Of a stretch of DNA of 64,000 nt, positions 6,062-40,568 are shown piece after piece. Numbering within the stretch: position 1 is the stretch's first letter; each line of letters starts with the position of its first letter. Below the pieces are notes generated by a model. It saw nothing but the letters and a program-made list of their open reading frames with translations, ran no database searches and was not told where the DNA came from. The stretch is from a candidate division FCPU426 bacterium (lineage in GTDB: Bacteria; Oederibacteriota; PGYV01; Palsa-1178), in assembly GCA_963840035.1 (NCBI GenBank), contig CAWIXE010000002.1, forward strand, positions 1,120,001 through 1,184,000, in the 5' to 3' direction. The translations under genes and the position numbers were made by a program.

Positions 6062-7015
6062 TTATAACACGCCCCGTCTTTTCATCCCGGCCACCGAATC
6101 TTTATAACCGGCCAGGGTTGAAAATTTAAAGCGGTACCCATACCTTTTCACGAGCTTTGACGGATCCGCGATAATGCCATACGCGTTAAGGTCCATGGCA
6201 GCAGGCATAAAACCTGAAAGCCTTAAGCGCCACATGATGCCAATAATAGCTTTTACAAGCCATAACGGCAGATTAAGGAATGTTTTAGCAGGCTCAAGTT
6301 CCCTAATCGGGCAATAATCATCAGGAACAAGGTTATAAGTGCCTTGTATATCCTTATCTCTTATTATCTTATGAATTAACAATGCAAGATCATGCTGATG
6401 TATTAGCTGCATGTTAAGAAAACTTCCCCCGAATTTGATAAGGAACGGCGATTTAACCATCAGCTCGACAAGCCCGCCTTTCTTGTATTCATCAGGCCCG
6501 ATTGCCGTGCACATCCTGACAATCACAAACTTAAGGCCCTTTCTGCTTTTAAAGCTGTTTATGTATTCTTCAACCTCCTTCTTATTGACGCCATACCTGT
6601 ATCCTCCCGGCGCAAGCGGCTGTGTCTCCTTTATCCATGGCCGGTTATCCGGCCTGCCGCCGTAAGCGCTCGTGGAGCTGAATTCAATGAATTGCCTGAC
6701 AGACATTGTTTTATTTGCGGCGTTAATTACGTTAATGGAGCCGTTAACATCCACATTGAATTCCCTGCGCTCATCGTGCAGTGATTTCATGAGGTACGCG
6801 AGGTGTATGACGTGGGTGGGTTTTTCAGCGCTGAAGATCTTTAAAACAGCCGCAGCATCAGTTACGCTGGCTTTTATAAACTTAAAGTATTTTCCGGGTA
6901 TGAGCAGGTTGTTTTCCGCGGTATCAACCCCGATGACGGGTATGCGCTTTGTGATGAAATATTTTACAAGGAAGAAACCGACGTTGCCGGAAGAGCCGGT
7001 GATAAGGATACGCAT
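6062..7015 (-). CDS. NAD-dependent epimerase/dehydratase family protein
   Basis: ITGSSGNVG, HLA, SSTSAYG, YGVNK; ATG 7015 after GGGGTG. Confidence 0.88.
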   Translation of the reverse strand: MRILITGSSGNVGFFLVKYFITKRIPVIGVDTAENNLLIPGKYFKFIKASVTDAAAVLKIFSAEKPTHVIHLAYLMKSLHDERREFNVDVNGSINVINAANKTMSVRQFIEFSSTSAYGGRPDNRPWIKETQPLAPGGYRYGVNKKEVEEYINSFKSRKGLKFVIVRMCTAIGPDEYKKGGLVELMVKSPFLIKFGGSFLNMQLIHQHDLALLIHKIIRDKDIQGTYNLVPDDYCPIRELEPAKTFLNLPLWLVKAIIGIMWRLRLSGFMPAAMDLNAYGIIADPSKLVKRYGYRFKFSTLAGYKDSVAGMKRRGVL

Positions 7016-7073
7016 GAACACCCCATTTTTTAATATTTTAATATAGGACATTCGTCAAATAGCTATTTGCAGT

Positions 7074-7433
7074 TCAGTCCCTCTTATCAATTCCGCTTAT
7101 TAGTTTTGACAACATCATGGCAACACTGTTAATCCTTTGTTTAAGGACGTCGTTCTGCTCTTTTGAGATCAATCCTTTCCGCTTACACAATTCCAGTATA
7201 GGTACGCATTCATGCGCAGATCCACGGGCAATATAAAAAAATTGTTTTCTGTCATTTTTATGCCAGCGGCCGTTACCTTCAGCAATATTTGCCGATATGG
7301 ATAATACAGCGCGGTTAGCCTGGTCTTTGATGTAGTAGGTGCCTTTTTCAAAAGAATCTGTGAGGTTTGAAATATCTTCGGCAAGGTCGAGCGATTTTTG
7401 GTAGACTTCAAGATTTTCGAACATAAACGACAT
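7074..7433 (-). CDS. Four helix bundle protein (23S rRNA IVP / bAvd-like family)
   Basis: FENLEVYQKS, DQ..RA..SI.ANIAEG.GR, F..IARGS..E family signature. Confidence 0.92.
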   Translation of the reverse strand: MSFMFENLEVYQKSLDLAEDISNLTDSFEKGTYYIKDQANRAVLSISANIAEGNGRWHKNDRKQFFYIARGSAHECVPILELCKRKGLISKEQNDVLKQRINSVAMMLSKLISGIDKRD

Positions 7434-7464
7434 AGTATCCCCCCTATGTTTTTTTAATTTTTAC

Positions 7465-7775
7465 CGGATGTTCGGCTGCTCCGATTTTTGGCGGAGCCTT
7501 TCCTTTTTTACAAATCCAGAACAAGAACAAAACAACATTCGATAGCCGAACAGCCGAGGAGTCGACCGCAGCCGAACTTTGGTGTTGTCGACTGCTCGGC
7601 TTTCGGATGTTCGGCTGCTCCGATTTTCGGCGGAGCCTTTCCTTTTTACAAATCCAGAACAAGAACAAAACAACATTCGATAGCCGAACAGCCGAGGAGT
7701 CGACCGCAGCCGAACTTTGGTGTTGTCGACTGCTCGGCTTTCGGATGTTCGGCTGCTCCGATTTTTGGCGGAGCC
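7465..7775. repeat. Tandem repeat of ~138-139 bp x ~2.25, each unit with inverted 8-mer-periodic arms
   Basis: CGGATGTTCGGCTGCTCCGATTTT starts at 7465, 7604 and 7742; units nearly identical. Confidence 0.95.
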
Positions 7776-7783
7776 AAAAATCA

Positions 7784-7857
7784 TGGCTGCCCGGGGTGGA
7801 TTCGAACCACCATAGGGAGCTTCAAAGGCTCCAGTCTTGCCATTGGACGACCGGGCA
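7784..7857 (-). tRNA. tRNA-Gln(TTG)
   Basis: TGCCCGG acceptor stem, anticodon arm GGAGC-CTTTGAA-GCTCC, GGTTCGAATCC T-arm, encoded CCA; 74 nt. Confidence 0.96.
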
Positions 7858-8115
7858 ACTAAAAACAAATTTACTATTTTCAATTTTCTATTTTAAATTA
7901 AGATACTGTTCAAATCGACAACATTATACAACAAACAGCAATACAATAAAATATTTAATTTTACATTTTGGTTTCAGGATTTGCATTGCGGAACAGGCTG
8001 GTTTGCACACGTTTTAAACAAATATCCATACACATATTCCCTGTTAGCACAGGAGACTCTAAACGGAGTACCTATATCCCTGCCGGCTTTTTTACGGCCG
8101 GCTGGAATATGGTTA

Positions 8116-8406
8116 TTAGTTTGCCCTGGTATCGCTTGCCTGCAGGGTTTCGTGGAATTTATCAAGGACCTTGACTTCTATCGACTTCCTCATTTCGTTG
8201 TTCAGAGGATGAGCGATATCCTTGAACGTTCCGTCAGACAATTTCCTGCTTGGCATAACAACAAAAAGCCCGTTCTTACCGTCTATCACTTTTAAGCCCC
8301 TTACTACAAACGAGCCGTCAAAAGTGATACTGGCATACGCTTTCAGCTTCTGGTCCTCTGAATCGCTTGTGCCCCTTGGAAAAACTTTTACCTCTGTGAT
8401 TTCCAT
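8116..8406 (-). CDS. spoVG: Septation regulator SpoVG
   Basis: MEITEVKV, LKAYASITFD, GLFVVMPSRK, FKDIAHP; GGAGG SD. Confidence 0.95.
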   Translation of the reverse strand: MEITEVKVFPRGTSDSEDQKLKAYASITFDGSFVVRGLKVIDGKNGLFVVMPSRKLSDGTFKDIAHPLNNEMRKSIEVKVLDKFHETLQASDTRAN

Positions 8407-12431: not shown

Positions 12432-12445
12432 AAGCCCCCACTGAT

Positions 12446-12548
12446 CAATTTTCAATTTTATATTTTCAATTTTCAATTAAGGAAAAAAGTCCTTAATTCA
12501 CTGCAATTTCTCTGTTATTTTTAATTGAAAATTCAAAATTGTAAATTA
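12446..12548. repeat. Inverted heptamer-periodic element (family A)
   Basis: CAATTTT CAATTTT ATATTTT CAATTTT CAATTAA -40 nt- TTAATTG AAAATTC AAAATTG TAAATTA. Confidence 0.9.
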
Positions 12549-17953: not shown

Positions 17954-18054
17954 TAATTGTATATTTTCAATTTTAAATTTTCAATTAAACCCGCCGCAAT
18001 TAACTGCTGTTTCTCGCTATTAATTGAAAATTGAAAATACAGAATTGAAAATTC
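17954..18054. repeat. Inverted heptamer-periodic element (family A)
   Basis: TAATTGT ATATTTT CAATTTT AAATTTT CAATTAA -31 nt- TTAATTG AAAATTG AAAATAC AGAATTG AAAATTC. Confidence 0.9.
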
Positions 18055-24118: not shown

Positions 24119-25576
24119 TTACGGCATCGGCGGGAGCTGGTCTCCCGGCATCATTCCCATGTCGCCGCCAGGCAAACCCGGGTCTCCCGGTAACGCATTA
24201 TCCGGTTCTCCCGGAAGTCCCATACCTGCATCCGGAGCCGGCAGATCGCCGCTCATGTCTCCCGGGGGTAATCCCATATCCCCGCCTGGGGCTCCCATGT
24301 CGCCTCCGGGTAATCCCATATCTCCGCCGGGTGCGCCCATATCAGCGCCTGGCTCTCCGGGCATTCCCATATCTCCACCTGGGGCTCCCATGTCGCCTCC
24401 GGGTAATCCCATATCTCCGCCGGGTGCGCCCATATCAGCGCCTGGCTCTCCGGGCATTCCCATATCTCCACCTGGGGCTCCCATGTCGCCTCCGGGTAAT
24501 CCCATATCTCCGCCGGGTGCGCCCATATCAGCGCCTGGTTCTCCGGGCATTCCCATATCCCCGCCTGGGGCTCCCATGTCGCCTCCGGGTAATCCCATAT
24601 CTCCGCCGGGTGCGCCCATATCAGCGCCTGGTTCTCCGGGCATTCCCATATCCCCGCCTGGGGCTCCCATGTCGCCACCGGGCATTCCCATATCTCCGCC
24701 GGGTGCGCCCATGTCAGCGCCTGGTTCTCCGGGCATTCCCATATCTCCGCCGGGTGCGCCCATGTCAGCGCCTGGTTCTCCGGGCATTCCCATATCTCCA
24801 CCGGGTGCGCCCATGTCAGCGCCTGGTTCTCCGGGCATTCCCATATCTCCACCGGGTGCGCCCATGTCAGCGCCTGGTTCTCCGGGCATTCCCATATCTC
24901 CGCCTGGCGCGCCCATATCGCCGCCGGGCATTGTTTCTTCACCGGGTAACGCGGCATTCGGCTCGCCAAGAGGTTCATTGGAAACTCCCGGGGCTTCTCC
25001 TGGCATGCCCATATCAGGCGCGCCTGGTTCAATACCGGCTCCCACTTCAGGGCCGCCCGGCGTCATTGCAGGTTCTCCCGGCAATGCAGGAACGCCTGTT
25101 GAACCGCCTGGAAGCTGCGTGGTATTATTATTTGATTTTGATGAAGCTGTGGATTTTCTTTTTGATTTTGTCCTGCTGGCAAGCATGACTTTCTTTTCCT
25201 GATATTTCCTTACCCTTATCTTAGGATACATGGATTTCGCCACCATGGCGCCGCCGTTGCCTTCCTGCAACAGCCAGCTGTCAACTATCCTTACCGCTGA
25301 CATGCGTTGAAAAGGCTGTACAACTTCCACCATTACTTTTCCATAACGACCGTTCACAAGGAATCTGTCGCCCTGCTTTATGCCATGGGCTTTCCCAATA
25401 TCAACGTATGAATATTCCTTGTAATTCGGGTCCGCGATGCCGATTATTTTGGCGTTAACCGCGTAATCGGTTTTCTTATGGGTAGACTTAGCAGGCTGGG
25501 CATATATGATAGCATTTAACGAAAAAACAAGGACAAGGGACAATAATATCAATAACGCCAATTTTCTGTTTTTCAT
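24119..25576 (-). CDS. Exported protein with long Gly/Pro/Met/Asp repeat tail
   Basis: GGAGG SD, signal peptide, small beta domain (YVDIG..HGIK.GDRF), G(G/A)DMG(A/M/L)P repeats. Confidence 0.85.
   Translation of the reverse strand: MKNRKLALLILLSLVLVFSLNAIIYAQPAKSTHKKTDYAVNAKIIGIADPNYKEYSYVDIGKAHGIKQGDRFLVNGRYGKVMVEVVQPFQRMSAVRIVDSWLLQEGNGGAMVAKSMYPKIRVRKYQEKKVMLASRTKSKRKSTASSKSNNNTTQLPGGSTGVPALPGEPAMTPGGPEVGAGIEPGAPDMGMPGEAPGVSNEPLGEPNAALPGEETMPGGDMGAPGGDMGMPGEPGADMGAPGGDMGMPGEPGADMGAPGGDMGMPGEPGADMGAPGGDMGMPGEPGADMGAPGGDMGMPGGDMGAPGGDMGMPGEPGADMGAPGGDMGLPGGDMGAPGGDMGMPGEPGADMGAPGGDMGLPGGDMGAPGGDMGMPGEPGADMGAPGGDMGLPGGDMGAPGGDMGMPGEPGADMGAPGGDMGLPGGDMGAPGGDMGLPPGDMSGDLPAPDAGMGLPGEPDNALPGDPGLPGGDMGMMPGDQLPPMP
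24270..24930. repeat. Coding tandem repeats, 51-bp and 93-bp units
   Basis: 17-aa unit x4 then 31-aa unit x4; 93-bp period visible at 24291/24384. Confidence 0.9.
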
Positions 25577-37922: not shown

Positions 37923-38008
37923 GAATTTTCAATTTTCAATTTAATATTTTCAATTAAAGGCCTTAGCTGGCATTTAATTGAAAATTGAAAATATAAAATT
38001 GAAAATAC
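37923..38008. repeat. Inverted heptamer-periodic element (family A)
   Basis: GAATTTT CAATTTT CAATTTA ATATTTT CAATTAA -16 nt- TTAATTG AAAATTG AAAATAT AAAATTG AAAATAC. Confidence 0.9.
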
Positions 38009-40482: not shown

Positions 40483-40568
40483 TGATTTTAAATTTTCAAT
40501 TTTAAATTTTCAATTAAAGACTTTTCCGGTAAGTTAATTGAAAATTGAAAATATAAAATTGAAAATCC
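40483..40568. repeat. Inverted heptamer-periodic element (family A)
   Basis: TGATTTT AAATTTT CAATTTT AAATTTT CAATTAA -16 nt- TTAATTG AAAATTG AAAATAT AAAATTG AAAATCC. Confidence 0.9.

Follow-up and report, generated by a model that had tools for sequence, protein, structure and literature searches.

A tRNA-Gln gene in the 64,000-nt window analysed here (the whole stretch of DNA, from a candidate division FCPU426 bacterium) is followed by a duplicated periodic hairpin and then by a small gene for a four-helix-bundle protein. The question raised by this locus is whether the three parts belong together and, if they do, whether the protein binds or spreads the hairpins, as was supposed in an original prediction that called the locus a candidate autonomous element. 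The protein belongs to PF05635, a family with structures solved since 2006 and, to our knowledge, no function assigned. Over-represented heptamer repeats have long been noticed in bacteria, and we know of no accepted origin or binding partner for them. The parts of the locus, given in the order in which they are met on the minus strand, are as follows.

7867 to 7899, minus strand: lone 7-periodic arm, 5' of tRNA-Gln.
7784 to 7857, minus strand: tRNA-Gln(ttg) with the CCA encoded, the anchor of the module (ARAGORN; Rfam RF00005).
7760 to 7782, minus strand: H1, a perfect 10-bp palindrome with the 3-nt loop TCC, starting one base past the CCA.
7726 to 7758, minus strand: left arm of copy 1, with five GA anchors at spacings of 8, 8, 7 and 8, beginning 1 nt past H1.
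7704 to 7715, minus strand: inner strand of copy 1, pairing over 10 bp with the first part of the left arm, then the conserved GG.
7677 to 7703, minus strand: tail of copy 1, with four TC anchors at spacings of 8, 8 and 7, the mirror of the left arm and its alternative pairing partner.
7638 to 7775, minus strand: tandem unit, copy 1, 138 nt.
7499 to 7637, minus strand: tandem unit, copy 2, 139 nt, without the 5' half of H1.
7588 to 7620, 7568 to 7577 and 7539 to 7565, minus strand: left arm, inner strand and tail of copy 2.
7465 to 7498, minus strand: partial third copy, 34 nt.
7438 to 7445, minus strand: G-rich ribosome-binding site.
7074 to 7433, minus strand: four-helix-bundle gene, 119 aa, PF05635/TIGR02436, of a tRNA-linked clade named 4HB-A here (HMM, tree and model).

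The architecture first described for the locus is borne out. About 2.25 units of 138 to 139 bp follow the tRNA after a gap of 8 nt (138 + 139 + 34 nt), the four-helix-bundle gene predicted some 30 nt further on has its ATG 31 nt from the last copy, and the inverted arms quoted for the unit are found in the sequence, as plus-strand letters. The lone arm 5' of the tRNA is also present, and as one of many heptamer arms of about 31 nt in the genome it need not be part of the module. Two details need revision. The arms are periodic, but not in pure octamers, the real spacing being a mixture of 8 and 7 in both arm and tail. A GCTCCG..CGGAGC hairpin does occur in each unit, but the conserved small hairpin is the palindrome at 7760 to 7782; the GCTCCG hairpin is incidental, because the orthologous sites of two relatives (G007 and G003) lose it and keep H1.

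On the tRNA strand the module is made up of H1, one spacer base, the arm, the inner strand with its GG, and the tail, and the left arm has two possible partners, the inner strand or the tail. Folding of the unit with its palindrome gives a z of -6.2, with none of 200 shuffles equally good. Read on the opposite strand, the loop of H1 is C-GGA-G, which is of the DNA mini-hairpin type. H1 in this copy was rejected as an intrinsic terminator on its polarity, with the T-run before the stem and the A-run last; some H1 palindromes behind other tRNAs do have terminator polarity. A pseudoknot between loop and tail is forbidden by geometry, the 2-nt linker being too short for both stems. In an Rfam scan of 6800 to 8400 the tRNA was the sole match and no family, Gut-1 included, matched the module, which was again unmatched in a scan of 40 related loci that returned tRNA/tmRNA, one group I intron and one cobalamin riboswitch. 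Elsewhere in the window, positions 24272 to 24919 hold a long tandem repeat of coding type, in which periods of 21, 30, 51 and 93 nt are nested.

The protein matches TIGR02436 at 104.2 bits (cut-off 33.8, E 1.5e-27) and PF05635 at 95.9 bits (cut-off 24, E 5e-30), and its gene has an epimerase-family gene, SpoVG and IspE as neighbours. The predicted structure is a four-helix bundle (pLDDT 96) that resembles XCC0516 (PDB 2GSC, TM 0.90) and BT_0352, and resembles Avd (4DWL) with a TM of 0.79 at a sequence identity of 11%. Five chains are listed in each of PDB 2GSC and 2RLD and, by analogy with XCC0516, BT_0352 and Avd, the protein is probably a pentamer. Its invariant polar residues are N49, E52, N54, R70 and E75, conserved basic residues stand at positions 41, 56, 62 and 70, and the protein carries a net charge of about +2. 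It matched no HUH, GIY-YIG, recombinase or reverse transcriptase (RT) family, and a search of the 3.46-Mb, 98%-complete genome for the reverse transcriptase PF00078 gave 0 matches. Values of dN/dS are 0.04 to 0.15 in 5 of 11 gene pairs, those with unsaturated dS, and in-frame stops are present in 6 of 107 loci; the gene is therefore under selection yet often lost, and the selection, as read from codon substitutions, is demonstrably purifying.

Comparison of the tRNA-Gln(ttg) site among relatives, in which 8 of 24 genomes gave the tRNA, places the tandem copies in context. This genome (G000) carries 2.25 modules and the gene, and G007 carries one module and a gene copy that is 84% identical, has a stop inside and lies among different neighbouring genes. 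In G003 the module stands without the gene, and G005 has neither. The sites of G011 and G008 are filled by a different periodic hairpin and a PF05635 gene of a sister clade (the G008 copy being truncated, as judged by eye), and those of G001 (C210:1192 onward) and G004 by a CGTC-type, Ssn-like hairpin, to which G001 adds a GIY-YIG gene. Small cassettes of gene plus hairpin land at this site, are lost from it and take one another's place. The ends of the element cannot be set from the empty G005 site because nothing there aligns past the CCA.

Since the relatives' site holds a single cassette, none or a different one, the duplication is a local event, likely recent, and probably arose between short direct repeats. 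It is also conceivable that the tandem copies are an assembly artefact of a single true module, as the full copies share 98% of their letters and differ at two places, one of them an extra A in a homopolymer. The other difference is a true substitution that restores the G007 letter, and tandem modules occur in several other genomes beyond the held-out set described below; we regard an artefact as very improbable, and it would leave our main reading unchanged. The duplication that drew first attention to the locus is a minor local event.

Gene-less derivatives had been predicted, and module copies without the gene do stand behind other tRNAs of this genome. BLAST of the unit gives matches that immediately follow tRNA-Lys, -Arg, -Trp, -Tyr and -Ser. 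All nine genome-wide matches to a strict motif of GG plus tail lie 38 to 215 nt behind a same-strand tRNA, and a wider motif has 13 of its 22 matches at 12 tRNAs, in a zone that is 0.17% of the sequence. In total, at least 12 tRNA genes are followed by the module, three of them with a 4HB-A clade gene. A perfect palindrome abuts 20 of the 45 tRNA genes against 9 of 2000 random positions, a count to which ordinary terminators add. Among the eight PF05635 matches in the genome are three close paralogs (56 to 59% identity), all of which lie behind a module, at tRNA-Gln, -Glu and -Asp. The remaining five comprise four that sit between inverted periodic arms in operons and one weak match without arms. 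At the four operon genes (C2:519706, C2:219350, C1:780744 and C1:786301) the arm family differs each time.

Several further observations concern tRNAs of this genome. Two tRNA-Ser genes are preceded, on the opposite strand, by a short hairpin and, after it, a TC-anchor tail of the same octamer family (C1:970371 and C3:230258). Each of the genes for tRNA-Arg-tct (C3:180700, minus), -Gly-tcc (C3:508769, plus) and -Thr-cgt (C2:1422306, minus) has behind it a near-copy in which a common hairpin insert of about 80 nt breaks the D-loop, and the same insert, reversed, is found behind tRNA-Ala(cgc) at C1:968984. This insert may be a second tRNA-targeting element.

The module and gene are not confined to this genome. 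A collection of 147 loci, less 12 duplicates, yielded a clade set of 108 loci with at least 39% identity, and 4HB-A forms one clade (SH-aLRT 85) in a quick tree of 40 of these loci and 26 other family members. By record title, its phyla include Planctomycetota, Omnitrophota, Nitrospirota, Bacillota, Bdellovibrionota, Myxococcota, Elusimicrobiota, KSB1 and others. In 83 of the 108 loci the distance from the clade gene to the 3' end of a tRNA or tmRNA is no more than 600 nt, the RNA being called by ARAGORN (67), Rfam (12, one of them inferred via a group I intron match) or a T-arm motif (4); ARAGORN called no tRNA at 27 other PF05635 loci. Module polarity relative to the tRNA is constant, and the gene follows on the tRNA's own strand at 64 tRNA calls and converges with the tRNA at 11. 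The motif adjoins 44 of the 108 clade genes and 0 of 16 distant family genes.

A held-out set of 80 metagenome loci, reduced to 68 by removal of 12 duplicates, was searched with the motif fixed beforehand. It was found in 51 of the 68, against 0 of 68 for a backwards control. Where 300 nt of flank were available on both sides (n = 46), a facing tRNA or tmRNA was present in 40 loci and the motif in 37. The module is upstream on the gene's sense strand in 49 of the 68 and antisense in none, a second module lies past the gene as a direct repeat in seven, and tandem modules occur in three. Loci in which direct-repeat modules flank the gene on both sides, in the manner of a cassette array, are L049, L053, L285, L312, L313, L317, L345 and L346. 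With these queries, IMG/VR and phage records gave no relative; one viral contig matches the DNA pattern, and plasmids gave 14 distant relatives at 30 to 43% identity. The tRNA-anchored gene-plus-hairpin system is real and widespread. It is also apparently undescribed so far, as the literature searched, mostly open-access, gave no paper tying a PF05635 clade or a module-gene pairing to tRNA ends.

The module also bears marks of constraint. H1 fixes the start of 48 modules, and in 45, 44 and 42 of these, respectively, the three variable positions of the stem (4 to 6) are paired, against about 19, 19 and 13 in shuffles, though the rows are related and the start was partly chosen by pairing. The arm begins exactly 1 nt past H1 in 40 of these 48. 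A tail with four TC anchors is present in 59 of 72 modules and a left arm with five GA anchors in 36 of 72, and pairing is more extensive between an arm and its own tail than between an arm and the tail of another module (18.0 against 14.8 pairs). Genome-wide, 375 of 1057 intergenic period-7 arrays are 31 to 33 nt long, that is, five anchors, a peak that is missing at periods 8, 10 and 11, which decay smoothly. The fixed array length and fixed anchor count are unlike slippage. Heptamer arms between genes number about 770 in the genome; they fall into many sequence families and form 171 local inverted pairs; examples in the window are at 12445 to 12478, 17955 to 18053, 37924 to 38007 and 40485 to 40566.

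A variant module, with a CC-TC tail first, belongs to one branch of the protein tree (SH-aLRT 96, quick tree), with 15 variant and 45 standard rows labelled and 45 rows unlabelled. The split of variant by clade is a single event, however, and is confounded with host phylum. Within another PF05635 clade the arm sequence varies from gene to gene, and so the clade does not fix the exact repeat.

In the wider family, a proposed comparison of PF05635 flanks with those of control genes gave a positive answer. Complementary 7/8-periodic arms bracket 19 of 33 other PF05635 genes, compared with 2 of 77 ORFs in the neighbourhood and 4 of 598 drawn at random from this genome. The idea that such genes are often flanked by short periodic repeats has published support for two of them, in the accounts of the Coxiella S23p heptamers and the XCC0516 four-unit array that are cited below. 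Across 99 genomes of the phylum, the motif has 708 matches and its control 146. Genomes with at least 10 motif matches carry 4HB-A in 12 of 19 cases and the others in 13 of 80, a comparison for which P values are overstated because the genomes are kin.

The idea that hairpin-rich genomes should carry the family holds for these 12, but seven of the 19 are without an intact clade member even by profile search. The seven are 83 to 97% complete, and one of them, G058, has a 47-residue relic behind a module; eight genomes have at least 5 motif matches but no TIGR02436 match. Nor does copy number scale with gene number, G060 having 122 motif matches and one clade gene. In G060, G064 and G086 the module has spread far beyond tRNAs, nested in an inverted-end repeat and always straight after a perfect palindrome. 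No other recurrent mobiliser, nuclease and HUH/Y1 included, was seen beside gene-less copies in the 39 of 47 ORFs scanned. A second clade is carried by all five genomes rich in an AAATT heptamer and by 8 of 94 others, a result that was rejected as motif specificity, since that heptamer is at the gene in two genomes only, by eye. One genome, G014, offers a clean natural case: its only TIGR02436 gene lies between AAATT-type arms, and the genome has 155 matches of that heptamer and zero of the GG-TC motif.

These data bear on the simplest alternative, in which tRNA ends are a hot spot for small genes and slippage repeats that are mere neighbours. Unrelated tenants do use the same site, namely the GIY-YIG cassette in G001 and the other PF05635 gene in G011, and the motif-rich genomes without the gene and the many heptamer arms in this genome would also fit. 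Coincidence does not account for the fixed anchor count, the 31 to 33 nt peak or the covarying stem, nor for a motif at 44 of 108 clade genes and at no distant one, and the 39 ORFs scanned contained no other recurrent small gene. We therefore consider it improbable that gene and hairpin are only neighbours.

A hairpin next to a tRNA could act in RNA or in DNA. In 53 of 67 tRNA-linked loci a hairpin abuts the tRNA. Of 31 triloops, 17 are GNA on either strand (11 and 6), RNA tetraloops are rare, and a GNA mini-hairpin is described as far less stable as RNA than as DNA (PMC13037366). Mismatches between arm and tail are G-T and A-C in equal number (144:144), with no G-U preference; genome-wide, heptamer hairpins lean slightly towards G-U on the sense strand (157:120, p 0.03). 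In 60 sampled copies from motif-rich genomes, 14 are at a tRNA 3' end in sense and five at a tRNA 5' end in antisense, and the other 41 have no recognisable tRNA end, many of them lying behind other palindromes. Antisense and palindrome-trailing copies therefore indicate DNA stems as the target. Together, the loops, the lack of G-U bias and the antisense copies suggest that the hairpins act at the DNA level, and DNA rather than RNA would then be the substrate.

Alternatively, the module may form a two-state fold in the trailer of the pre-tRNA, the inner stem first and the long stem of arm and tail later, which is bound by the pentamer and cut by an RNase III-like enzyme, and which controls tRNA 3' processing or translation of the gene. 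Several features speak for such a scheme: the sense strand between tRNA-Gln and the gene has no terminator-like site, most copies are on the sense strand behind a tRNA, each arm prefers its own tail, Avd is reported to bind RNA, and RNase III excises the Coxiella intervening sequence (IVS) inside its heptamer stem (PMC4990558). The sense-strand G-U excess and the sense-only modules of the held-out set fit RNA too. The scheme is harder to reconcile with the 144:144 balance and DNA-type triloops on both strands, with antisense copies at tRNA 5' ends and copies behind unrelated palindromes, with the 11 genes convergent with their tRNA, and with the empty site in G005, and we think it unlikely.

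Among known systems, the nearest in protein family are the ORF-bearing IVSs of 23S rRNA. In Coxiella burnetii, the helix-45 IVS carries three to four GACAGAT-type heptamers before the S23p ORF (PMC4990558). As far as that account goes, the shared features are the PF05635 family, GA-n-A-nnn heptamers before the ORF, the link to a stable RNA, sporadic occurrence and an ORF that is often decaying. The locus described here differs in its place, behind a tRNA or tmRNA and not within the mature RNA, and in an ORF that is not enclosed by a stem and may be on either strand, and the module has a separate palindrome, a GG-TC tail and many gene-less copies. Other PF05635 genes of this genome are enclosed; this ORF has no terminal inverted repeats around it and no arm downstream. 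Periodic arrays are also known from Xanthomonas, where those of GGGAATC have mostly four units, form 70 inverted pairs and include one at the start of XCC0516 (PMC4692102), and from the Gmet_H/Gmet_I sites of Geobacter metallireducens, which are paired four-unit arrays (PMC2700814). These are likewise intergenic, 7/8-periodic and often in inverted pairs, but in those reports they are linked to G-quadruplexes or IHF/HU sites and not to PF05635 or tRNA ends, and the Geobacter supplements searched do not contain the module motif as an element.

A closer likeness in way of life is offered by two systems of a small gene and its hairpins. In one of them, RAYT cuts and joins DNA for REPs, whose families have tags such as GTAG and CGTC. 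Both the REPtron (RAYT with GTAG REPs) and Ssn/SRM (CGTC-type) have, as presented in their reports, a small gene beside its own hairpin family, many gene-less copies, hairpin-rich genomes without the gene and a tetranucleotide at the stem foot (PMC3733652; PMC11893778). For Ssn/SRM, the ssnA gene is present in 81% of SRM-rich genomes (PMC11893778). The present system differs from both, as they are described there, in a four-helix bundle without known catalytic motif, periodic arms of fixed count and a strong preference for tRNA ends. Its tag, in place of GTAG, is GACC/GGTC (the conserved GG-TC), a term that does not occur in the main text of PMC3733652. No HUH/Y1 transposase is adjacent to this locus, and the combination of a GIY-YIG gene with a CGTC-type hairpin is absent from it, GIY-YIG genes being found elsewhere in the genome. 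Nor is there an integrase beside the tRNA, as the ORFs flanking tRNA and gene were identified as other functions. A search for a duplicated tRNA 3' end gave one match at E 1e-12, a threshold at which a short att core would escape, and none in the 330 nt past the gene. The workings of the locus are those of a REPtron or Ssn cassette and its kin are the ORF-bearing IVSs, but it belongs to none of these classes.

The comparison with RAYT raises the fully autonomous case, in which the four-helix protein would itself cut and join DNA. Cassettes do swap at the orthologous site, seven of the 68 held-out loci have a direct-repeat module past the gene, the protein has the five invariant polar residues, and the GACC before the stem on the other strand resembles the GTAG and CGTC tags. 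The evidence against it is broader. The protein matches none of the HUH, GIY-YIG, recombinase or RT families, there is no far-side arm, the gene may be on either strand, comparison with the empty site gives no ends or target duplication, and these queries drew no relative from IMG/VR or phage records. We hold self-catalysed movement to be quite unlikely and, with no known catalytic family, no reverse transcriptase found and no definable ends, the label of an autonomous, self-mobilising element is not retained.

What remains of the three-part idea is a gene-carrying copy of a tRNA-end module, whose arm is bound as single-stranded DNA (ssDNA) by the predicted pentamer and which is spread with help from the host's enzymes or others; we would put the chance of this reading at about even. 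The Avd pentamer provides a model for the binding. All five of its protomers touch one stem-loop, and flipped-out bases are held in crevices between protomers (bioRxiv 10.1101/2023.10.23.563531). In comparison with the Avd structures (4DWL, 8UB7-8UBE), as reported, the fold is common to both; the ligand there is RNA and here a putative periodic arm, and the search of this genome gave no reverse transcriptase. By this model, the predicted pentamer ring would read the left arm with one GA anchor for each subunit, and pairing of the arm with the tail would hide it from the protein. It is plausible that the protein binds the five-anchor arm, which is its candidate ligand. The protein may also have some part in spreading the module, and movement by a host or unlinked enzyme would be the simplest assumption.

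A bolder extension can be made from this reading, which we offer as possible but rather doubtful. PF05635 pentamers may be sequence-reading ssDNA rings that plant modules in trans at the feet of DNA stems, tRNA cloverleaves for example. They would then form a third class of selfish gene-plus-hairpin pair beside RAYT/REP and Ssn/SRM, one whose protein lacks a known catalytic fold, and would be the source of the fixed-length heptamer arrays found in many bacterial genomes.

For the family, the locus supplies a defined, covarying candidate ligand of fixed count for one PF05635 clade, and five anchors for five subunits is a simple prediction of the preferred reading. For the bacteria that carry it, tRNA ends are a shared landing site for interchangeable small gene-plus-hairpin cassettes. 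If the protein does help to spread the module, this would be a new small mobile system with a nucleic-acid reader that looks programmable and, if the arm is indeed what it binds, that binding would explain a class of bacterial 7-base repeats.
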